IMG/VR virus record: IMGVR_UViG_3300022700_000085 | Coordinates: 1 to 62,285 of that record | Direction: 5' to 3' (one strand) | DNA: 62,285 nt | From: a virus | Taxonomy: Duplodnaviria > Caudoviricetes | Part shown: positions 1 to 32,453 of the stretch, piece by piece | Numbering within the stretch: the first letter of the stretch is position 1 | Layout: the number at the start of each line of letters is the position of its first letter | Made by a program: the position numbers and the translations under genes | The notes under the pieces: generated by a model | What the model was told of the DNA's origin: nothing | What the model saw: the letters and a program-made list of their open reading frames with translations, nothing else | Database searches by the model: none

Positions 1-1
1 A

Positions 2-370
2 CTTCACATAGAGTATTTCTTTAGAACTGAAAATTCAGCAGTTTTTAGTTTATATGAAAAATCTGAAGTAGCAAGTGGAGATGCACTAACAGCAAGAAAC
101 TCCAATAGAAATTATGTTGATTCATCTGAAACAACTAATATGGTGAAGAACGGCACAATCACAACCACTAATGCAACAACGCTTGTGACTCATAATGTCG
201 GTTATGAAGAGTCATTTTTTAGTTCAGATAGTGGTCAAACAAGTTCTAGGCACGAATGGGTACTTAAAGAAAATACAGTATATACGTTTGAATTAGACAA
301 CACAGCAGGTGCAAGCAACGAAATGTTACTTCGACTTGATTGGTATGAAACTGAACCGGAGACTGAATAA
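2..370 (+). CDS. 5'-truncated hypothetical (probable virion) protein, paralog of 370..924
   Basis: Frame is open from base 2 to TAA at 368-370; shares TEN.A..S.YE, VKN.T, EW.LK..T.Y and DW.E motifs with the next ORF. Confidence 0.6.
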   Translation, partial: LHIEYFFRTENSAVFSLYEKSEVASGDALTARNSNRNYVDSSETTNMVKNGTITTTNATTLVTHNVGYEESFFSSDSGQTSSRHEWVLKENTVYTFELDNTAGASNEMLLRLDWYETEPETE

Positions 371-924
371 TGGCGATGCCAATACAAGTGACAGGTGAAA
401 AATCATTAGTGAAAGTTGATGATTATACACGGTCGATTTTAGCTATTAATCCAAGACATAATGATTTACATGAAGGTAGACAATATTTTTTTTATAACAG
501 TGAAAATGTTGGTAGTGGCAATTCAATGTCATTGAGTTTTACTACACCTAATAATGTAACTTTATCTTTTCTTACTTGTATTGACACTGAAAACACAGCA
601 AATGTATCTATATATGAAGATGTAACAACTCAAAATGGTACACCTGTCACACCTCTTAATGCTAGTAGACAACATCATAACGAAACACAAACTTCAAATG
701 TTGTAAAAAACGCCACAGTAAATACAGTTAACGCTGTAGCATTAGTTGAAAATTTGCAAATTGGTTTTAGCAATAGAAACCGATGGTTGTTACCAGGGAA
801 ATTTGATGGGCATCGAGAATGGATTTTAAAGAGGGGTACACGTTACTCAGTTATAGTAGAAAACACATCAGGAACAGACAATAAAATATTAATTTGTAGT
901 GATTGGATTGAGGGGGTATTTTAA
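370..924 (+). CDS. Hypothetical beta-rich, Asn/Thr-rich protein, probably virion-associated
   Basis: 184 aa ORF coupled by TAATG overlaps; paralogous to the upstream ORF. Confidence 0.6.
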   Translation: MAMPIQVTGEKSLVKVDDYTRSILAINPRHNDLHEGRQYFFYNSENVGSGNSMSLSFTTPNNVTLSFLTCIDTENTANVSIYEDVTTQNGTPVTPLNASRQHHNETQTSNVVKNATVNTVNAVALVENLQIGFSNRNRWLLPGKFDGHREWILKRGTRYSVIVENTSGTDNKILICSDWIEGVF

Positions 925-1079
925 TGCCAGTACAAAGATGTCAAAAGAATGGCAAGCCGGGCTATCGCTGGGGAACCGAAGGCAAATGCTACACCTATAC
1001 TCCTAACAACAAATCAAGCCGCGAACGTGCCAAAAACAAGGCAGCAGAACAAGGTCAAGCAATTAAGGCGAGCAAATGA
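924..1079 (+). CDS. Small basic phage protein (51 aa, MPVQRCQKNGKPGYRWG...), not in the ORF track
   Basis: Manual translation; ATG overlaps the previous stop (TAATG) and its TGA overlaps the next ATG (ATGA); GAGGGG upstream. Confidence 0.7.
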   Translation: MPVQRCQKNGKPGYRWGTEGKCYTYTPNNKSSRERAKNKAAEQGQAIKASK

Positions 1080-1390
1080 ACACACGAAGATTAGCACGCA
1101 AAGCACGTCGTCAAGCCATTATTAGTCACTTTAATGGTGAAATTACTGATATTGAATGTGAAGCAGTTTTAAATGCCACCAAAGATAAAGAAATTCTTCA
1201 ACGCTGGGCTGAAGAAATTGATAAACAACTCACAACTAAGAGACTTTATGGGAGTGGTTGGAAAAGTTTCTTTAGGAATGTCTGGGACTGGTTTAAAAAC
1301 AATTGGGAAGACATACTGAAGATTCTATTCCAACTTCTTCCGTTGATTCTTATGGAACGGTATAATGCAGACTCGAGATCAAGCCATTAA
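1076..1390 (+). CDS. Hypothetical protein with amphipathic/hydrophobic C-terminal helix
   Basis: 104 aa ORF, translationally coupled; C-terminus duplicated downstream of tnpB (see findings). Confidence 0.6.
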   Translation: MNTRRLARKARRQAIISHFNGEITDIECEAVLNATKDKEILQRWAEEIDKQLTTKRLYGSGWKSFFRNVWDWFKNNWEDILKILFQLLPLILMERYNADSRSSH

Positions 1391-1400
1391 AGCGAATTAA

Positions 1401-2480
1401 ATGTTGTTAGCACATAAGATTGAACTTTATCCTACCCCCGAACAACAACAGTACTTTGAACGTGCTTTTGGTTCTCGTAGACATTGTTATAATCAATTAT
1501 TAGATCATTTTAAACATGAAAAATGGTCAAGAAAAACTGCTCACGAGGTTTATAAAAATCTTCGCAAACAGTTTGGTTGGTATTCCGATATTAGTCAACG
1601 AGTAACTAGAAATACTGTTGATGATATTGATAACGCCTTTAAGCATTTCTTTCGACGAGTAAAAGCAGGTGAGAAACCTGGTTTCCCTCGTTTCAAAAAG
1701 AAAGGTATCAATGATTCATTCGCTTTTAGAGAAAGCAAACTATTTAAAGTAAATGGTCGATGGTTAAAAATCCCAAGATTAGATACCTGGATCAAATTAA
1801 GTCAGAAAGTTCGTTGGTCTGGCACATGTAAACAGGTAACAATTAGTAAAATTGCAGGTAAATACTACGCTAGTATATTAGTTGAAACTAATGATTATCA
1901 AACTAAACATGGTATAGGCGTTGTTGGTGTTGACCTTGGTGTGAAAAATTTGGTTGTGTTATCTAACGGGGTTGAATTTCCAGCAAATCAAAAGTTAAAA
2001 GATTCATTACATAAACTAAAGAAAAATCAACGTCGATTAAGTAAAAAGACGAAAGGCAGTAACCGCAGAGCAAGAGCCAAGCTTAAAGTTGCTCGTATTC
2101 ATCGTCGGATTGTTAATCAACGTAAGGCCGTTTTACATGAATTGACGGATTATTTAACTAAAACTTATGAAACTATTTGTATTGAAGACCTTGATATTAA
2201 AGAAATGCTGAAGAATCATAAGTTGGCTAGAGCTATCAGCGATGCTGGTTTTGGCACATTTCGTCAGTTTTTGAATTATAAGGCTAAGTTGCGAGGAAAC
2301 ACTGTCATTGTTATTGATAAATGGTTTCCAAGCAGCCAAATTTGTTCTAATTGTGGAACAAAAAAGAAGCTTTCGTTAAGTGAACGAGAGTATACTTGCA
2401 AACATTGTGGTTTGATTATGAATCGAGATCACAATGCTGCAATTAATATATTAAAGTGTGGACATACGTTGGCCCACTAA
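1401..2480 (+). CDS. tnpB: TnpB-family RNA-guided endonuclease (IS200/IS605/IS607 OrfB), solo, no TnpA
   Basis: N-terminal HKIELYPTPEQ HTH; GFPRFKKK; RuvC motifs GVDLG, IEDL and RDHNAAINI all intact; CSNC/CKHC zinc ribbon. Confidence 0.93.
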   Translation: MLLAHKIELYPTPEQQQYFERAFGSRRHCYNQLLDHFKHEKWSRKTAHEVYKNLRKQFGWYSDISQRVTRNTVDDIDNAFKHFFRRVKAGEKPGFPRFKKKGINDSFAFRESKLFKVNGRWLKIPRLDTWIKLSQKVRWSGTCKQVTISKIAGKYYASILVETNDYQTKHGIGVVGVDLGVKNLVVLSNGVEFPANQKLKDSLHKLKKNQRRLSKKTKGSNRRARAKLKVARIHRRIVNQRKAVLHELTDYLTKTYETICIEDLDIKEMLKNHKLARAISDAGFGTFRQFLNYKAKLRGNTVIVIDKWFPSSQICSNCGTKKKLSLSEREYTCKHCGLIMNRDHNAAINILKCGHTLAH

Positions 2481-2575
2481 AACGCACATAATAGAAGTGT
2501 AAGACTACTTGTAGCAACTTTGTTGACGATGTGAACGAAATTAATTTCTGAAAGGTAGAGAGGTACAATGCAGAT
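2455..2575 (+). ncRNA. Putative TnpB omegaRNA (scaffold ~2455-2554, guide ~2555-2575); boundaries approximate
   Basis: Position at the tnpB 3' end; nested stems CACAT/ATGTG and AATAGAAGT/ACTTTGTT around GTAAGACTACTTGTAGCA; palindrome GAAATTAATTTC at 2537-2548. Confidence 0.55.
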
Positions 2576-2939
2576 TCTAAATCCATTTCGTAATGCACCT
2601 CACACTCGATGTCGATGCAAAACAAAAGCAGGTGAGATTACTTCAGTACAATCCAACACGCCTGTATTAGATATTCCAGATGACACGTCCGAGGCACTGA
2701 TTGAAGCCATCACAGTTGGAAAAAGTGATGGTGAAGCTATGAGTTCTCGTGCCTGGCATCCTGAACGTGGTATCATGGATGTTAATGATTTTATTGCTAT
2801 GAAGAAGCTTGAAAAAGAAAAGAAGGATCTTGAAAAGAAGCAAGAAAAAGAACGAAAGAAAAAAGAAAAAGAAGCACGCGAGCGAGCAAAACAACCTAAA
2901 CAATCTGAACCCCGCACGAGCAACGATTATAAATCATAG
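2568..2939 (+). CDS. Hypothetical protein with Lys/Glu-rich coiled-coil tail
   Basis: 123 aa, GAGG RBS, directly upstream of terminase; no recognisable TerS motif. Confidence 0.55.
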   Translation: MQILNPFRNAPHTRCRCKTKAGEITSVQSNTPVLDIPDDTSEALIEAITVGKSDGEAMSSRAWHPERGIMDVNDFIAMKKLEKEKKDLEKKQEKERKKKEKEARERAKQPKQSEPRTSNDYKS

Positions 2940-2941
2940 TA

Positions 2942-4621
2942 GTGAGCCAAGGAATATTAATGGGACTCCTAACAGATTTTGGTGACACTCTACACAATGG
3001 TTTAGTGTCAAAAACATTAAACAACTGTAGTAGATGGGTAACACATCGAAGAGTGATGGGAGCCCCTTTTCCAGGTCCGTATAACTTCAAGTATCACCCT
3101 TGGTGCAGAGAAATACATGATTCAAAAGCAGAGTATAACACAATAATGAAAGCAGCTCAATTAGGGCTGACAGAAGTTGCTGTTAATCTTGCTTTTTTTA
3201 CAGTTGATGTAAGAAAACGTGATGTGCTTTATGTCTTACCAACAGCTTTAAATGCTAGTGATTTTTCCAAGTCTCGTTTTAATACTGCTTTACTTAATAG
3301 TCCTTATCTTAGCAATTTATTCACTGACACAAATACTGTCGGACTAAAGCAAGCAGGAGGTATTAATTTATATATACGAGGTTCACGAGGCGATAGCAAT
3401 TTAAAATCCATTCCAGTATCAGTATTGATTCTTGATGAAATGGATGAAATGGACCAGAAACAAATCTGGTTGGCTTTTGAACGTTTGTCTGGGCACCTTG
3501 AAAAATCAGTTTTATCTTTAAGCACGCCAACAATCCCGAAATTTGGAGTGCATAAACTTTTTCTTCAAGGAACACAAGAGCATTTCTATTTTGATTGCCC
3601 TCGATGCGGAAGATCAACTGAATTTATTTTTCCAGATTGTTTAGAAATTTGCGGTGATTCAATAACAGACCCAGATGTAAAAAAGTCTTTTCTTAAATGT
3701 AAAGAATGTAAAAAAGAAATAAAACAAGAAGAAAAACCTGAAATTTTGAAACCTGCTTTTTGGAAGCCGACAACAACGGTGTCTGATAGTCATCGTAGTT
3801 TTTACATCAACCAAATGTACTCTTACACTGTTACTGCCTCTGATTTAGCTATAGCTTATTTTAGAGGTCTTGGTGATGAAGCTGCAATGGTTGAATTTTA
3901 TAATTCAAAACAAGGTACTCCCTTTATTCCTGATGGAGGCCAAGTTACAGAAGAAGAACTTGACCAAGCTTGTAAAACATATTTTAAAAATGAACAATTC
4001 CCAACAGTTGGAACAGAACGATGTATTGTAATGGGTATTGATCAAGGAAAAATGAACAACGTTTGTATTGTTGAATATATTTTTAAAGGCGGTTCAGGAG
4101 ATATAAATGCGTCGGCTTATGCAAAACTTTTATGGGAAGGGGAATTTTCAGGTAGTGATTTTTCTTCATTAGATCCTTTAATGTATGATTGGCAAGTCAA
4201 AGCCTGTGTTATTGATGCTGACCCTCAAATCAATGATGCAAGGCGTTTTGCTAGACGTTTTCCTGGTTTTGTGTACCTTTGTCGTTATCGACAAGGGTTG
4301 ACTGGAAAAGAATATCAAGTCAGTGAAGAAGATAGTGGAGCACCTATAATAACTGTAGACCGCACTAATTGGTTAGATGCTTCTCTTGGTAGGTTCCATT
4401 CAAATAGGGTTTCTCTTCCAGCCGACACATCAAACAAATTTAAAGAGCAAATTAAAAATTTGGCTCGCACATATGAAAAAGATGCACAAGGAAACCCCAA
4501 AGCTATCTATATGAATACAGGCCCAGACCATTATGCGCACGCTTTTAATTACGCAGAGATAGCTTACCCACTCGCCGCCGGTATAGGTCAAACTGAAGAT
4601 ATTGATGAGCAGGTTTTATAA
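2942..4621 (+). CDS. terL: Terminase large subunit (lambda GpA-like)
   Basis: MKAAQLGLTE Walker A-like, LILDEMD Walker B, STPT motif, CPRC/CKEC zinc motif, MGIDQG and PDHYAHA nuclease motifs. Confidence 0.9.
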   Translation: MSQGILMGLLTDFGDTLHNGLVSKTLNNCSRWVTHRRVMGAPFPGPYNFKYHPWCREIHDSKAEYNTIMKAAQLGLTEVAVNLAFFTVDVRKRDVLYVLPTALNASDFSKSRFNTALLNSPYLSNLFTDTNTVGLKQAGGINLYIRGSRGDSNLKSIPVSVLILDEMDEMDQKQIWLAFERLSGHLEKSVLSLSTPTIPKFGVHKLFLQGTQEHFYFDCPRCGRSTEFIFPDCLEICGDSITDPDVKKSFLKCKECKKEIKQEEKPEILKPAFWKPTTTVSDSHRSFYINQMYSYTVTASDLAIAYFRGLGDEAAMVEFYNSKQGTPFIPDGGQVTEEELDQACKTYFKNEQFPTVGTERCIVMGIDQGKMNNVCIVEYIFKGGSGDINASAYAKLLWEGEFSGSDFSSLDPLMYDWQVKACVIDADPQINDARRFARRFPGFVYLCRYRQGLTGKEYQVSEEDSGAPIITVDRTNWLDASLGRFHSNRVSLPADTSNKFKEQIKNLARTYEKDAQGNPKAIYMNTGPDHYAHAFNYAEIAYPLAAGIGQTEDIDEQVL

Positions 4622-6445
4622 ATGACACAAGAAATAAATTACATTACTGCGATACGTCACCCGCATTATTTAAGAGATGAATTGTATTGGCAGGATTGGC
4701 GTGAAACTTATGAAGGCGGACCTAATTTTGTAAAACGTAATTTACAAAAATTTAGTTCGCGTGAAACAGAAGGGGATTTTCAAAATCGACGTTTCTATAC
4801 ACCAATCCCTAGTTACGCAAAAGCCGCTGTTAATGATGTGCGTAATTCAATTTTTCAGCGTCTTCGAGATGTCTACCGCCGTGGTGGCAGCGAAAATTAT
4901 ATGCGAGCCACAACAGGGGAAATAGGCGGTGTAGATAATAACGGTAGTAGCATGCAGTCGTTTCTTGGTATTGATGTTTTAACTGAATTACTTGTTATGG
5001 GCCGTGTTGGTGTATATGTTGATATGCCAGTTTTAAGTGGTCTTCAAACATTAGCTGATGTAGGTAATGCACGTCCTTACTGTTATATGTATCGAGTGGA
5101 AGACATTTTATCTTGGCAAGAAACAAAACCAGAAGAGCCAGGGGATTTTAAAACAGTACTTCTTAGAGATCAAGGCATCAGTTATAATCAAGGTTTTGCT
5201 GGTGTATCACTTCCTTCTGGTGGTTTCACTCGGTATCGTCTTATTTGGATTGATGAAGAAGACAAAAAAGTCCGAATGAAGATTTTCGGCGAAGAAGACC
5301 AACCAATTAATATTTATGGTTTACCTGTAAAAGAGGATGAATCTGTAATTAAACTCGATTTAGATAGAATCCCTTTTGCAATGATGAATCTTGGCGGTAG
5401 TATTTTAAAGGATGTTTACAAACATCAGGTAGCACTTCTAAATCTTGGTTCTAGTGATGTAGCTTATGCATTAAAAGCAAATTACCCTTTCTATGTGGAA
5501 CAAAAAGACCCGCGACAAGTCGGGGCGCACTTAAAGAAAACTGTTAACAGTGATGGCACAACTAGCACCTCAGATAATAGTGAAGCAGGACAAGAAGCAA
5601 AAACAGGTACATCTCACGGTCGTACATACCCAATGAAAGCGGACAGACCCGCCTTCATTCATCCTAGTTCTGAGCCTCTTGAAGCTTCTATGAAACTTCA
5701 AGAAAAACTTGAGGATGATATTAGAAAACTGGTAAATCTAGCTGTTCAAAATAAAACAGGCCAAAGAGCAATATCAGCAGAAGCGATGAAACTTTCTGAT
5801 CAAGGTTTAGAGGCTGGTCTTTCTTATATTGGTTTAATTCTAGAAGGTGCTGAAAGACGTATTGCTGAATACTGGGCATCATATGAAAACAAGAAACCAG
5901 AAGAAAGAAAAATCGCCATAGTAAAGTATCCTGATCGTTATAGTTTAAAGAATGATGAAGACAGAATCAATGAAGCAAAACAACTTTCAGACCTGATGTA
6001 CACTGTTCCTGGTAAGGAAGTCAAGAAAGAACTGGCCAAGAACATTGTAACCACACTTCTTGCAGGAAAAATTAATACTAAAACACTTGATACAATTTTC
6101 TCTCAAATTAATAATTCTGACTACACCACATCTGATCCAGAAGTAATTATTAGAGCCCATGAGGCTGGTTTAGTTGGAGAACAAACCGCTTCGATTGCAG
6201 TTGGATTCAGTGAAGATGAATATTTACAGGCAAGAGAAGACCATATTGAAAGAGCGAAACGTATCATGGAAGCACAACAAAATACAAAAGAAACAGAAAA
6301 AAGTGCTGCAAGAGGTATAAAAGATATTGATGAGGATAAGGATTCCGGTTTAAAAGAACGAAAAGAAGCAAATGATATGACTTTTGAAATTGAAAAAGAA
6401 ACACCGAGTAGAGGTGAAGGTAAAAGTTTGAGGAAAGGTGAATAA
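4622..6445 (+). CDS. Portal protein
   Basis: 607 aa right after terL; HPHY..W....YEGG N-terminus, GRVGVYVDMP, ISAEA, typical of SPP1/DUF4055-like portals. Confidence 0.8.
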   Translation: MTQEINYITAIRHPHYLRDELYWQDWRETYEGGPNFVKRNLQKFSSRETEGDFQNRRFYTPIPSYAKAAVNDVRNSIFQRLRDVYRRGGSENYMRATTGEIGGVDNNGSSMQSFLGIDVLTELLVMGRVGVYVDMPVLSGLQTLADVGNARPYCYMYRVEDILSWQETKPEEPGDFKTVLLRDQGISYNQGFAGVSLPSGGFTRYRLIWIDEEDKKVRMKIFGEEDQPINIYGLPVKEDESVIKLDLDRIPFAMMNLGGSILKDVYKHQVALLNLGSSDVAYALKANYPFYVEQKDPRQVGAHLKKTVNSDGTTSTSDNSEAGQEAKTGTSHGRTYPMKADRPAFIHPSSEPLEASMKLQEKLEDDIRKLVNLAVQNKTGQRAISAEAMKLSDQGLEAGLSYIGLILEGAERRIAEYWASYENKKPEERKIAIVKYPDRYSLKNDEDRINEAKQLSDLMYTVPGKEVKKELAKNIVTTLLAGKINTKTLDTIFSQINNSDYTTSDPEVIIRAHEAGLVGEQTASIAVGFSEDEYLQAREDHIERAKRIMEAQQNTKETEKSAARGIKDIDEDKDSGLKERKEANDMTFEIEKETPSRGEGKSLRKGE

Positions 6446-28403: not shown

Positions 28404-28746
28404 TATTTTCTCTCCAATGGTTAATTCTTTCGCCAAAAATTTCTTGATCGTACAATTCATTTGGATGGTTTAATTCAATTAATGCAAGGAGATTCCATGT
28501 AGCATGGCCTATATGTGAACACCCTGAATCTTGATCATATTTTTCACCGTCCATAAAACTTCTCAAATGTCGCATCATGGAATCTAAATATTCTTTATCT
28601 GGTTTACCTCCTAACTTCCAGTTACCATCACCGTATTTTTCTGCACCAAGCTCCATTATTCTTGCCACCGCTTCAATAGCATGTGGAAATTGTAAAATGT
28701 ATGACAGTTTTGGTTTTCCTTCATTAAATCTCAAAGCTTGTTTCAT
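28381..28746 (-). CDS. dATP/dGTP diphosphohydrolase-like protein (DUF5664)
   Basis: GKP.LS.., ..VARIM..GAEKYG..NW..G, SMMRHL, D.DSG.SH..HA.WN. Confidence 0.75.
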   Translation of the reverse strand: MKQALRFNEGKPKLSYILQFPHAIEAVARIMELGAEKYGDGNWKLGGKPDKEYLDSMMRHLRSFMDGEKYDQDSGCSHIGHATWNLLALIELNHPNELYDQEIFGERINHWRENNARTTQS

Positions 28747-31700
28747 ATTTCATCTTTCGTTATTTGATTACCTTCTTTTCTATACGGCTCCCCTTCTTTG
28801 GCATCAGAATCAAATGTCAAATTACCTACAATAATTTGATTAATTTTTTTACCTCTACCAACGGGGAAATTTTCTGATAATTTACTCTTTATTGCTCTAT
28901 CTTTCCATTCTCCTTTTTGATATTCTTCTAAAGTATTGAAAAACCTTTTTTTGAAATCGCTAAACTTAGTCGCTTGACCAGGAACATTGTAACAATGATC
29001 TTTTATAAATTGTTCAAGATCGTCCGCATTACTTTCAATTGCGTCTTTCTTTCCTTGTGTTTCTACCACTGGCAACATTAATCTACCGTCTGCTGGTTGA
29101 GTCTCATAATCAAGTAAAGTCCTAAGAAAATGCGGTGCTTCATCACGTATCAGTGTTTTAAACTTATCTCGCGGGATTTCATTTTCTATTGGTGGTACAT
29201 ACATAGCTGTAATTCTTGTGTCACCAGGAAACACAGGGAGACTACTACGTGAATTAGCCATCTGGACAAAATGTAGTGTACTTTTCACGTCTTGCACGGT
29301 TTTATATTTTGCGTGAATAGAAATATTATCTCCAGTAGTCCACTCTTTTAATTTATTGTAAGCTGTAGACCCTGCCTTATTAATATCGACTTCATCAATC
29401 ACAGCTAGTATGACATCTTTTAATTCACCGTTATACCCTTGTTCAGAAGTCAAAGCCCTATCTGCTTTTTTAACACCGCTAGTAAATAAAATTTCTAATG
29501 CTTCATGGAAACTTGATTTACCTGTATTTTGAGGTCCATACATAAATAAATACGGAAGCTTACCAAATGGGTTTTGAATCATACATGCAACCCAAGCAAG
29601 GAGATATTCACCACCGTTGTTTATACCCCATTTTTTACACCAATCTAAATCTTTAATATACTCATCTAAATCAGAACCACAATGGTTAAGTAATAAATCC
29701 CATGTAGGGTGTTTAGGTGTCTCACCTTCAGCCAATTCAATAGGATCGAAGGCAAATTGAGCTGAATCTCTATTCCATTTTCTTCCTCCTGGGTATTCAG
29801 GTTGAAACGGCTCATTCACTAGCAACCAAGAATTAAAAACAGCGCCACCTAGAATAGGGTCTGGTTTTCCAAACCCGAGTGAAAAAAGAAACGATTTAAT
29901 ATTTTCGCGTGGGTGTGTCACCCATTTGTGACTGCTATCTCTTAATACCCAAGAATCAAAACCTACACCACCAGGGCCTTTTATTTTTAAGGCTCTCATT
30001 TTATCGTCAAGTTCACTCCAAATGCTTTCTTCTTCTTGTTCTTTATCAGATGTTTCAGAAGCATCTTTAAGCCATATTTCCCAACCACGAGAAGTTTTGA
30101 CAAAACGAGGGAAATCATTTTTTGTGTCGCCTCTTTCTTTAGAGATAACTAAAACTATTTTTTCTTTTGCTCCTCTGTGAAGGGCTAAATTTCTACCAGC
30201 AGCTTTATCTGGAATTTTGATATCTGTTTCAAGTAGTTTAAGGGCGTCCTTTAAATCATCTAATTCTTGAAACATGAAGCCTTGTTTTTCTTCAGTTCCT
30301 TCAAAACCGCCACAAGCCATGCAAATTTGACGTAACGTGGCAGGATAATTGTAGGTGGTGTGCGTCCATGATCCTTGCTTATCCCAAAGGGGGTGTTCCT
30401 CTGTGCCTTCACCGAAGCGGTAAACATCCCAAGCACCATTAGGCTTTGGACGCATAAAACAATTACCAACAAGTATGAAATCTTCTAAGCAGAAACAATG
30501 TGTTTCTGGAACTGTACAACAAAATACTTCTTCTTCATCTGCTGGTTCAACACTAACAATGCGCCAATAATGATGCTGTCGATTAGTTATACTAGCCCAT
30601 CGCTCTTTATGTTTATTAATAAGGAAAAAATCTTCAGTAAGATCAAATGCTTTAATAACAACAGTGTGTACAATGGACCCTTCTTTATACCCACTTGCAT
30701 TTATTCTTGATGTTATTTTAGAAGTTTCAATCCCTAGTATATGACATACTTGTTTGACATGTTCAACACTTTCTTTATCAGTTGATCCAATTATACAAGA
30801 TCCACTATCAGAGACGCAACCATCAGCGGCAAAGTAGCCTGCAAGCCAACCATATAAATAAGGTTTATCATAATGTAAAGGAACTAAAGATTTGAAATGA
30901 TAAGGGAGATTCCATATTTCAACACCTCCAATAGATCGGTTTATTGGTCGTTGAGGATATTCAGAAAAATATTTCAACAATTCAGCATCTTTATCTCCAA
31001 ATAAATAAAGTTGGGAAGTTTTACTCGATCCTCCGTTAGTGCCATCTCCCCATACCAACCCATGTTGAATACCTACTACACTAGGAATATAGGTACATTG
31101 AGGTTTAGTCTGTACTAATATTCTTCCAGGTGTGAGCTCCTTGGTTTCTATTTCTTCTCGTTCACCGAAATTGACTTTAGTTTTTCGATACTCATTACTT
31201 CGATACTTAATAACATACCAGCGGTGATCGCCAGTAGCTCTAATTACTTTACGTTGATCACGATTTTCAATAGTGACGGAAAAGACTTCTTGATTACCAT
31301 ATGATTTGAAAGGCACTTTTACCCATGCACCACGGCGAGTCATAATTTCAACATTTTTACCAGCTAACTCTTGAATTGGTTTTACGCCTTCGCGAGTAAT
31401 TACTTTTGTATCCCCGGCAAGACAATTCGGTTTCCCTGGATCACTATCAAGAGAATTAGTATCAAATAACCCTCTTATAGGTGTTCCACGTTCAGCCCAT
31501 TCATCATATACTTGTTTTAGTCCTGCTGTATGCCCCTGAAAAAGATGGTGATCATGAACCCATAAAGCAGTGTGCCCTGTTCCTTCAAGGTCTTCAAGGA
31601 TCTTTAGGTGTGTATCATCAAGAGGGACACGAGAATAAGCTTGAGTCATTTCATCAAGCTCATCCCCTTTCGTTTGTGTACCATCAGGATTCCATCCTTG

Positions 31701-32453
31701 AATCCTGATTTTGGACCTGCCACCAGAGACAACTTCGAGATGATCACGCCAGTTAGGAGGAACATGATCGGCGGTCAGGAATTGTGTGGCCGGTTTGACT
31801 TGCTTGTAACCTTTGTTATCTTTATTTGCGTCAACATGGTAAATCCACATGACTTGACCACAGACATCCTTGTTGGCTTCGATATTCAAGCCTGTGTGTC
31901 GAGCAATAAGAGAAAGGAAAGCGTCAGCTAGAGCAGAATGCTCATCATGGTTTGCTGTTTTTGGGTAAGGTTCTTGGAACCAAATATACAGGTGCCGTCC
32001 TTGTCCCCGTGTGCTCCTAATTACTTCGATCCAAGGCACTTGAATGTTAGATAGTTTTTCTAATTCCTCGTCTGGGATTCCCACACCGTCAGCGTGCCCA
32101 GCGATTGAATCAAAATCATACCCTAACCCGATTGATTGTTTGTTTTTCCAATCCCACCAAGTAGTACCAATTGCTTTTAATCGTTTCTTAATGATGAATT
32201 GAATAGGTGGATCACTGTAATTTGGATCAGTTTTGGCGTTATAAGGCCACCTGTGAGGGCCAAACACTTCACCACCTTCTTCATACTTATTTGTTTCTGG
32301 GATCTTCTCCCCAGATTTGAAGCAATTGATTTGTGTTTCTAGTCGGGCTGGGTCTTTCCCCCAACGATCAATCAACTCGAGGTTGTTATGTTCTTTTTTG
32401 ATTGTGCTTTCATAATATTTTCTGAAAGCCTCTGTCATTCTTTCATTACGCAT
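28743..32453 (-). CDS. Primase-helicase (AEP-like N-terminus + SF3 helicase) with an intein
   Basis: DFD and STRGQGRHLY primase motifs; GPQNTGKS Walker A, VIDE Walker B; intein motifs. Confidence 0.82.
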   Translation of the reverse strand: MRNERMTEAFRKYYESTIKKEHNNLELIDRWGKDPARLETQINCFKSGEKIPETNKYEEGGEVFGPHRWPYNAKTDPNYSDPPIQFIIKKRLKAIGTTWWDWKNKQSIGLGYDFDSIAGHADGVGIPDEELEKLSNIQVPWIEVIRSTRGQGRHLYIWFQEPYPKTANHDEHSALADAFLSLIARHTGLNIEANKDVCGQVMWIYHVDANKDNKGYKQVKPATQFLTADHVPPNWRDHLEVVSGGRSKIRIQGWNPDGTQTKGDELDEMTQAYSRVPLDDTHLKILEDLEGTGHTALWVHDHHLFQGHTAGLKQVYDEWAERGTPIRGLFDTNSLDSDPGKPNCLAGDTKVITREGVKPIQELAGKNVEIMTRRGAWVKVPFKSYGNQEVFSVTIENRDQRKVIRATGDHRWYVIKYRSNEYRKTKVNFGEREEIETKELTPGRILVQTKPQCTYIPSVVGIQHGLVWGDGTNGGSSKTSQLYLFGDKDAELLKYFSEYPQRPINRSIGGVEIWNLPYHFKSLVPLHYDKPYLYGWLAGYFAADGCVSDSGSCIIGSTDKESVEHVKQVCHILGIETSKITSRINASGYKEGSIVHTVVIKAFDLTEDFFLINKHKERWASITNRQHHYWRIVSVEPADEEEVFCCTVPETHCFCLEDFILVGNCFMRPKPNGAWDVYRFGEGTEEHPLWDKQGSWTHTTYNYPATLRQICMACGGFEGTEEKQGFMFQELDDLKDALKLLETDIKIPDKAAGRNLALHRGAKEKIVLVISKERGDTKNDFPRFVKTSRGWEIWLKDASETSDKEQEEESIWSELDDKMRALKIKGPGGVGFDSWVLRDSSHKWVTHPRENIKSFLFSLGFGKPDPILGGAVFNSWLLVNEPFQPEYPGGRKWNRDSAQFAFDPIELAEGETPKHPTWDLLLNHCGSDLDEYIKDLDWCKKWGINNGGEYLLAWVACMIQNPFGKLPYLFMYGPQNTGKSSFHEALEILFTSGVKKADRALTSEQGYNGELKDVILAVIDEVDINKAGSTAYNKLKEWTTGDNISIHAKYKTVQDVKSTLHFVQMANSRSSLPVFPGDTRITAMYVPPIENEIPRDKFKTLIRDEAPHFLRTLLDYETQPADGRLMLPVVETQGKKDAIESNADDLEQFIKDHCYNVPGQATKFSDFKKRFFNTLEEYQKGEWKDRAIKSKLSENFPVGRGKKINQIIVGNLTFDSDAKEGEPYRKEGNQITKDEI
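30462..31424 (-). mobile_element. Intein (321 aa) with LAGLIDADG homing endonuclease
   Basis: N|CLAGDT.V block A, ATGDHRW block B, GLVWGDG and LAGYFAADG, VFCCTV...LVGN|C end. Confidence 0.88.

Follow-up and report, generated by a model that had tools for sequence, protein, structure and literature searches.

How a nuclease gene of transposon origin comes to lie between two phage genes, without a transposase and with the end of the upstream gene present a second time on its far side, is the question raised by the locus analyzed here. The locus belongs to the viral record IMGVR_UViG_3300022700_000085 (Caudoviricetes), a contig of 62,285 bp that we refer to in its full length as the window and that contains a single tnpB. 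Reading of positions 1-4000 together with the list of open reading frames (ORFs) gave the gene order X (1076-1390, 104 amino acids), 10 nt, tnpB (1401-2480, 359 amino acids), 87 nt, Y (2568-2939, 123 amino acids), large terminase gene, and portal gene, with X, tnpB, Y, and the terminase gene on the plus strand. An initial annotation had proposed that this solo tnpB is a homing gene guided by RNA, flanked by a duplicated and recoded end of gene X. Our comparisons indicate that tnpB resides on an inserted cassette of 1203 bp (1355-2557, plus strand), which in all likelihood is a fragment of an IS607-family element equipped with a replacement end for gene X. That the TnpB nuclease drives the spread of this cassette by RNA-guided homing is the leading mechanism, for which we estimate a probability of roughly 0.45 for the statement as a whole.

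Four of ten listed public sequencing runs (X1, X2, X4, and X6, of which X1, X4, and X6 represent three studies) were compared with positions 1-5000 of the window. Two of the four, X1 and X4, contained an empty allele in which position 1354 is joined straight to 2558. The joint skips 1203 nt, and two nucleotides (GA) fit either side of it; the cassette boundaries may accordingly be shifted to the right by 0-2 nt. The empty contig of X1 (2623 nt) covers 917-1354 with 11 and 2558-4742 with 21 deviating letters, and a 240-nt contig from the different study X4 has the same joint. The flanks of the empty allele differ from the window by 1-2.5%. Since such near-identical contigs join 1354 to 2558, the stretch 1355-2557 is an insertion, and the empty site retains the downstream copy of the gene end, as had been predicted. 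The diverged gene end at 1355-1390 is absent from the empty allele, which bears out the earlier view that the cassette brings its own tail of gene X. The occupied form was also present in X1, in a contig that spans 1375-2533 with 3 deviating letters, and X6 provided a 1367-nt contig over 1190-2558 with 99 deviating letters, which represents a diverged phage whose cassette has the same surroundings. Thus, tnpB lies between conserved genes and is present in some (X1, X6) and absent from others (X1, X4) of these phages, near-identical ones included, as is typical of homing genes. Run X2 was considered as a further source of the empty allele and was not counted; its flanks stop at 1348 and restart at 2567, with no cover of tnpB and no contig across the joint. 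At position 1345 the window has a G (giving TTGAT), and all four runs have an A, the occupied X6 contig included; this marker is not linked to the cassette.

Loci of more distantly related phages were collected by terminase searches, in which the GpA-type large terminase (2960-4621, plus strand, assigned by Pfam) served as the query. Among the resulting 21 viral and 19 metagenome loci, 11 contain both X and Y, with X upstream of Y and the large terminase gene. The two genes are adjacent in all 11 loci, without a tnpB between them, and they overlap in 10 of the 11 by 11-35 nt, in agreement with the ancestral overlap postulated by the initial annotation. The tail of X in these loci has the form ...PLLL(M/L)E...(E/D)DS, and Y starts in the form MKIPNPF; across the 11 relatives the N-terminus M(K/Q)I.NP(F/W/Y) of Y is kept. 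A metagenome scan with the terminase alignment yielded relatives of at most 79% amino-acid identity, none of them with tnpB between X and Y. The comparison indicates that absence of the cassette is the ancestral state and that the ancestral X and Y genes overlapped.

Gene X ends with 13 codons (1352-1390) that had been matched to the stretch 2555-2593, and both stretches read as the initial annotation had claimed. Over the 39 nt, 25 nucleotides are identical, and 9 of the 13 codons specify the same residue or stop. Both copies encode ERYNADS with five differences within the motif, all of them synonymous, and both have the stop at the same place; outside the motif there is one more synonymous difference (TCA/TCC), and the other pairs are R/K, S/I, and H/S. 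While the repeat itself is real, its length has to be corrected. Because the joint of the empty allele falls between 1354 and 2558, the triplet GTA at 2555-2557 belongs to the insert, and the true repeat comprises 36 nt (1355-1390 versus 2558-2593) with 24 identical positions. In a six-frame scan of the whole window, the downstream copy was the sole other match to the X tail with at least 7 of 12 identities (8/12; the next best had 6/12). Shuffled windows reached 8/12 in 0 of 30 cases and 7/12 in 1 of 30.

The two copies have different tasks. The upstream copy (1355-1390, plus strand) is borne by the insert and substitutes for the last 12 codons of X, stop included. The downstream copy (2558-2593, plus strand) is the original X end; it contains the ribosome-binding site GAGAGG and the ATG (2568) of gene Y, and it is the candidate for both the guide and the target sequence. 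Because the insert completes X, and Y retains the original overlap together with ribosome-binding site and start codon, both genes are left intact. When read in the frame of Y, the upstream copy opens a frame of only 11 codons behind a weakened Shine-Dalgarno sequence (GAACGG versus GAGAGG), and it is dead as a Y start. The X protein of the empty X1 contig ends with ...MERYNADSKPIS (P0001), a tail of the downstream type with one change.

From the original, the upstream copy differs at 12 of 36 nt, in 5 of the 7 ERYNADS codons, and at 7 of the 12 nt of the last four codons; an identical block of 8 nt is present inside the repeat (1364-1371/2567-2574). The repeat thus looks old, with the upstream copy near saturation at its free sites. 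In the X6 phage, two of the five synonymous sites of the upstream copy (1357 and 1363) show the original base, and the copy has a 6-nt gap; divergence is gradual. Both copies share a four-residue extension that is missing from the X homologues at 77% and 67% identity (ending in MERHNADS and MERYNANS, respectively, each followed by the stop); therefore, the repeat arose within this sub-lineage. Neither a stretch of the downstream copy nor one of the upstream copy had any exact match (0 each) in scans of viral contigs.

The origin of the insert emerged from the relatives of its TnpB. At 55-62% identity, these were found at 6 viral and 44 bacterial loci, the latter mostly in Thiotrichaceae, Beggiatoa-like bacteria, Chromatiaceae, and Methylococcaceae, a hint as to which hosts the source element occupies. 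The relatives are of the IS607 type, with a TnpA of 217 amino acids (MerR-Resolvase, domains confirmed) encoded directly upstream and ending inside the tnpB start. A left-end motif is present at 19 of the 20 TnpA-bearing loci and is preceded by NGGG at 18 of 20 (N being A in 9, G in 7, T in 1, and C in 1), and the right end closes in CGG in 28 of 28, the flanks diverging thereafter. A tblastn search with the TnpA of relative L023, a query that was found nearly full length in 18 relatives, detected no TnpA in the 62-kb window. An IS607 left end was likewise not found in the window, where the X stop is followed by the tnpB start after only 10 nt, nor was a right end with a CGG close. Hence, the lack of TnpA stated by the initial annotation was borne out, and the comparison with the ends of the relatives removes the insertion sequence ends on which an origin through TnpA supplied in trans would draw.

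The insert begins with the X tail, whose stop precedes the tnpB start by 10 nt, and extends 22 nt beyond the motif TGACGNNGTGAA, where the relatives carry 38-55 nt. These last 22 nt (2536-2557, plus strand) stand in place of the relatives' right-end module and contain neither CGG nor an evident pseudoknot strand. A closer TnpB clade (71-74% identity, 397 amino acids) reads ..VDGVNEI.. through the TGACGNNGTGAA motif, and the window reads VDDVNEINF followed by a stop; because of this parallel, element-derived sequence runs to about 2552. A scan of viral contigs with P0005, a member of this clade, found 80 TnpB loci, none of which belonged to the closer clade, and a degenerate scaffold pattern matched just 6 loci, 5 of them already known. 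Lacking a serine recombinase, a left end, and a canonical right end, the cassette cannot transpose. From these sequence comparisons, the insert is an internal fragment of an IS607-family element that comprises tnpB and the core of its guide RNA. We are confident of this structural account as a whole, namely, an insertion, derived from IS607, with a replacement tail for X.

On either side of the insertion point, at 1320-1327 and 2572-2579, the sequence AGATTCTA occurs. AGATT (AATCT at the left end) is a repeated sub-terminal motif of the IS607 relatives and may be compared with it. The AGATTCTA pair may be fortuitous, or it may have influenced where the fragment inserted.

The tnpB gene is intact and its product was recognized by Pfam (OrfB_IS605, PF01385, 4e-24; Cas12f1-like_TNB, PF07282, 1.5e-24; HTH_OrfB_IS605, PF12323, 1.3e-13), by PHROG (phrog_506, 1.4e-112), and by comparison with structures of ISDra2 TnpB (E = 1.2e-62, residues 6-352). 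The three acidic RuvC motifs GVDLG, CIEDL, and NRDHNAA align with GVDVG, GTEHL, and DRDENAA of ISDra2 TnpB. The aligned D, E, and D, which we take to be the catalytic residues of RuvC, are intact, as noted earlier. Among 121 positions that are invariant in 21 relatives, 105 are kept. The length of 359 amino acids does not reflect a truncation, because lengths of 360-366 amino acids occur among the relatives. Two more variants are full length, P0004 from the X6 contig with 20 and P0125 with 2 amino-acid differences. The 99 differences of the X6 contig are distributed over 1369 nt, and its only gap is the one of 6 nt in the X tail. A rough ratio of nonsynonymous to synonymous polymorphism (pN/pS) for tnpB is 0.08-0.13, or 0.25 under the least favorable split, where a share of the 99 differences is assumed to fall within the ORF. 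This estimate argues, if roughly, for purifying selection on TnpB in its phage context, and the protein looks functional. Seven of the 16 relative-invariant positions that are altered in the window TnpB cluster at residues 109-139, and the X6 variant also differs at 113, 119, and 128; the cluster could represent a shift in motif or RNA recognition.

A scaffold core of the omega RNA was located at 2456-2535 (plus strand), ending with TGACGNNGTGAA (2524-2535). A covariance model built from 28 relatives (R1) matched positions 2456-2573 with 52.9 bits (E = 3.5e-11), and 17 of 19 modelled pairs are standard in this match according to a count of alignment marks. The score arises from the core, the last 40 nt being aligned at low posterior probability. 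The guide-RNA helices show compensatory changes in the alignment of the 28 relatives. The tnpB stop is at 2480, and the core is non-coding from 2481 onward; it seems to have been kept nevertheless. In the relatives, a hairpin loop (CGYU..) additionally forms a covarying long-range pairing with the bases that immediately precede the final G of the right end, and the best loop-tail duplex is located at the very right end in 28 of 28, with -6.6 to -10.2 kcal/mol. A search of 1000-3200 against Rfam at E ≤ 1 returned no guide-RNA family and one chance match to a long noncoding RNA. Candidate 3' helices in the window (2566-2570, 2585-2591, and 2589-2594) were no better than those of shuffled sequences. 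In a first MAFFT alignment, the downstream copy had looked homologous to the IS607 right end; this was ruled out, as the copy is native in the empty allele and in distant phages. Three scaffold ends are conceivable, at 2555-2559, about 2573, and about 2598, and only an end at 2555-2559 makes the cassette's own sequence and the empty site differ.

A guided nuclease of this type also needs a target-adjacent motif (TAM). The relatives have RGGG at their left flank and RCGG at their right end. At the left junction of the cassette, TGGA (1353-1356, plus strand) is the candidate motif of the empty site, in the +2 register, which falls within the 2-nt uncertainty of the joint. TAGA (2556-2559) is read at the cassette's own right edge, so that the two differ at position -3, G versus A. 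For an IS607-family TnpB, a preprint gives TGGG as the TAM, UCGG as the scaffold end, and TCGG as the self sequence, with the G at -3 being the most discriminating base (bioRxiv 10.1101/2023.11.20.567912). The pair TGGA/TAGA parallels the published TGGG/TCGG logic in a suggestive manner. According to a reading of their DNA, TGGAG is found at the homologous place in 8 of the 11 distant empty loci; it derives from the conserved (M/L)-E codons. The upstream copy has 4-5 mismatches to a 20-nt guide, two of which adjoin the motif.

The distribution of the cassette was compared with that of its surroundings. The X6 contig that contains part of X and the cassette is 7.2% diverged from the window, and it encodes a full-length TnpB with 94% identity in the same context. 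The X6 flank pieces, which are separate metagenome contigs and possibly represent more than one strain, are diverged by 13.7% (921-1219) and 15.5-21% (2829-5000); those of similar depth (18-19) are diverged by 17-21%. Together with the empty allele and its nearly identical flanks, we infer from this pattern an element that moves among related phages. The data point to a long-lived, selected, and horizontally moving cassette.

The proposed mechanism is the following. The cassette would pass between related phages through homologous recombination in its flanks, as its distribution suggests, and TnpB would act as a free-standing homing endonuclease. An RNA extending across the right edge of the insert would bear, after the scaffold, the sequence that is found 3' of the insertion point in an empty phage. 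During mixed infection, the complex of TnpB and this RNA would cut the empty site, consisting of TGGA followed by the downstream-copy sequence, with the cassette-bearing genome then serving as the template for repair of the break. The cassette's own alleles would be spared, with TAGA at the right edge and 4-5 guide mismatches, two of them beside the motif, in the upstream copy. Taken in full, the picture of a transposase-less and end-less TnpB that has become a natural RNA-guided homing element, cutting the X/Y overlap of co-infecting relatives at TGGAG, with a built-in gene end, a guide RNA without the pseudoknot, and a shifted motif, is tentative and stays short of even odds.

Several observations weigh against homing, among which the absent 3' RNA module and the imperfect fit of the motif pose real difficulties. 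The 3' module is absent from the window, including the covarying pseudoknot strand present in 28 of 28 relatives, and the loop strand itself is altered compared to the relatives. The best loop-tail pairing in the window amounts to -4.8 kcal/mol, which is equalled by 57% of shuffled tails, and the 3' region folds no better than shuffled sequences (z = 0.10). The covariance model sets the scaffold end at 2573 and not at the insert edge, albeit with low posterior probability. With an end at about 2573 or about 2598, self and empty site would be the same, and homing therefore could not work. The empty site has no GGG, so the RGGG inferred from the relatives (18 of 20 loci) does not occur there; TGGA mismatches RGGG at -1, and the other two registers fit worse. 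Five of the 16 altered invariant positions in TnpB are changed non-conservatively. Empty and occupied alleles were present at similar contig depth within one sample (X1). The ORF share assumed for the pN/pS value and the possible mixture of strains among the X6 pieces count on the same side. Finally, one need not assume, as the initial annotation did, that recoding of the gene end served to evade cutting. At the tail, MER(Y/H)NA(D/N)S is retained in X homologues at 67-77% identity, and because the tail is conserved at the protein level, purifying selection suffices to explain the synonymous-only pattern, without special selection for recoding. The mismatches of the upstream copy to the guide would then be a possible useful by-product of ordinary divergence. 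Much of this also speaks for the main rival, a passive or re-purposed cassette, which we consider a real possibility, if a less probable one than homing. Here, an IS607 fragment would have been captured once by illegitimate recombination and would have lost the 3' part of its guide; it would not cut, would spread by ordinary mosaic exchange, and its TnpB would be kept for another benefit or would simply not have decayed yet. The missing right-end module and pseudoknot strand, the 3' region without a structure signal, the lack of the canonical RGGG at the empty site, the scaffold end placed in phage sequence at 2573, and the occurrence of both alleles in one sample are in line with such a history. 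So is the search for recoded duplications at other tnpB loci that the initial annotation had suggested; none of 10 other TnpA-less TnpB relatives had a convincing flanking repeat (L073 was just over its shuffles, in a poor alignment), so the architecture would be a one-off. A passive cassette is harder to reconcile with a TnpB that is full length in three variants at a rough pN/pS of about 0.1, with the conserved non-coding RNA core, and with a cassette that is less diverged between two phages than its flanks. Moreover, the near-saturated upstream copy (12 of 36 nt) implies a persistence that is hardly possible for a neutral load of 1.2 kb. We favor homing because a homing gene would be expected to look as this one does, a long-lived, selected, and horizontally moving nuclease gene that has no transposase.

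The remaining explanations are less probable. TnpB might be active with a guide that starts further downstream, at about 2574 or 2599, phage sequence completing the scaffold. As self and empty site would be equal, TnpB would have a role other than homing here. The end of the covariance-model alignment at 2573, a 5-bp pairing of the loop with 2566-2570 that resembles the one in relative L063, and a 7-bp helix of 2535-2541 with 2585-2591 would agree with this arrangement, but both pairings are no better than chance, and the sequences involved are native to the phage and also present in the empty allele. For such downstream-shifted guides, no other site with fewer than 3 mismatches exists in the window, and the lone site with 3 mismatches lies within an unrelated gene. 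We regard this arrangement as unlikely. Even less credence is given to a secondary origin of the empty allele, by which an ancestral cassette would have been deleted through recombination between the direct repeats that flank it. The joint, with 2 nt shared, is at the extreme left of the repeat and outside the identical 8-nt block, and flank markers differ between the alleles within 10-25 nt of the joint (position 1345 and the P0001 tail); for these reasons the empty allele is not a recent deletion product. The empty allele, furthermore, has a pure downstream-type tail, and the cassette is absent from all 11 distant relatives. Ordinary IS607 transposition or site-specific integration with a TnpA acting in trans is the least probable of all. 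The same dinucleotide GA is present at both junctions, and related phages do receive insertions of IS607-like elements, at GAGAGG in L006; the cassette, however, has no left end within the 10 nt from the X stop to the tnpB start, no right end closing in CGG, no GG core, and no TnpA within the 62-kb window, and a 36-nt repeat is not made by transposition.

The L006 case concerns two related phages that are 99% identical and differ behind the portal gene (L006 4438-6089 versus L003 6216-6363). A 1.65-kb segment of L006 with a TnpB-like ORF of 509 amino acids (TNB and HTH_OrfB domains) replaces a gene for 46 amino acids in L003. It directly follows GAGAGG, its right edge ends in TATCGG, and it has no gene-end repeat; the segment looks like an IS607-style insertion. 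Conversely, L003 has about 775 nt (1278-2052) between the small gene preceding X and X itself that are not found in L006 (about 267), a further indel in this gene block.

Concerning the remaining genes, X matched no Pfam or PHROG family, and Y lies directly 5' of the large terminase gene, whose start, in comparison with the relatives, is probably the ATG at 2960 rather than the GTG at 2942. A megablast search with window positions 1-5000 against a phage collection gave no match. The gene at 370-924 (184 amino acids, phrog_5335) resembles the C-terminal part of the preceding ORF (2-370). It is also present or absent, as X2 and X4 contigs skip 349-921 with 46 other letters between, and a contig of X6 skips 364-920 with 3 letters between. 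The Lys/Glu-rich and A-rich region 2820-2900 of gene Y draws many partial, loose-ended contigs from unrelated sequences, which inflates the depth there. The same phage has a second homing-type element; at 28743-32453 on the minus strand, a DUF5906/AAA protein of 1236 amino acids contains an intein with a LAGLIDADG domain, where Pfam Intein_splicing scored under and LAGLIDADG_3 over the cut-off.

Prophages that integrate into icd or into tRNA genes supply a new 3' end to the gene that they interrupt. The phage cassette resembles them in that the element restores the target gene with an end of its own, distinguished by synonymous differences, and the original end is displaced to the other side. 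Those prophages use an integrase and att sites, whereas the cassette has neither a recombinase nor att-like ends. TnpB has the known role of protecting its own transposon by cutting the vacated site. A close parallel within the IS607 family is the TnpB and omega RNA of CboIStron (bioRxiv 10.1101/2023.11.20.567912). Both belong to the clade of TnpB proteins linked to a serine TnpA, and both have a scaffold core overlapping the 3' end of the gene, a guide expected from DNA just outside the element, and a G-rich empty-site motif with one base changed at the element's own edge. Unlike CboIStron, the phage cassette lacks TnpA, the left end, the CGG right end, and an evident pseudoknot strand, and it carries a replacement gene end; if active, it would target other phage genomes rather than restore an excised transposon on a sister chromosome.

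With respect to phages, a 2026 review (PMC13565253) describes the free-standing homing endonucleases SegF, SegB, and MobE of T4-like phages. These are encoded between conserved genes, are present or absent in close relatives, leave their neighbors intact, and spread via recombination in mixed infection, as is proposed for the phage cassette. Recognition by the cassette would be through RNA instead of protein, and self would be told from non-self by an insertion that splits the motif from the target instead of by nearby substitutions. The same review cites one experiment on the TnpB-driven spread of IS605 in a plasmid population without TnpA, termed "transposon non-restorative homing" (PMC13565253). 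There, TnpB reportedly cleaves the corresponding empty site of a second replicon, and the element is copied in without TnpA, again as proposed here. That system was experimental and used a complete IS605, whereas the present case is a natural phage population with an end-less fragment of the IS607 clade in a gene overlap. That TnpB may copy itself into the orthologous empty sites of other replicons, among them phages, is put forward in the review as theory (PMC13565253). The presence or absence of tnpB among related cyanophages has been described earlier, in the accessible text without a mechanism. In the literature covered by our full-text search, so far as the texts were accessible, we found neither a phage tnpB cassette with a gene-end repeat nor a demonstrated phage-to-phage homing by TnpB.

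The locus thus provides a natural test case in phages, with wild occupied and empty alleles of exact boundaries, a nuclease gene apparently under purifying selection, and no possibility of transposition. The locus further illustrates that, with a spare gene end on board, a gene can enter a two-gene overlap without harm to either gene. If cutting were refuted, the locus would still be a clean example of a decayed insertion sequence fragment kept in a phage for another reason. If cutting holds true, the "intronless homing" of phages would extend to RNA-guided enzymes, and a minimal TnpB guide RNA would do without the usual 3' module. Many solo tnpB genes of phages, of which 80 loci were found in one scan of viral contigs, may then be homing genes rather than transposon debris. 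The cassette would be an RNA-guided counterpart of the T4 Seg and Mob endonucleases and a natural case of TnpB having left transposons to become an autonomous selfish gene.

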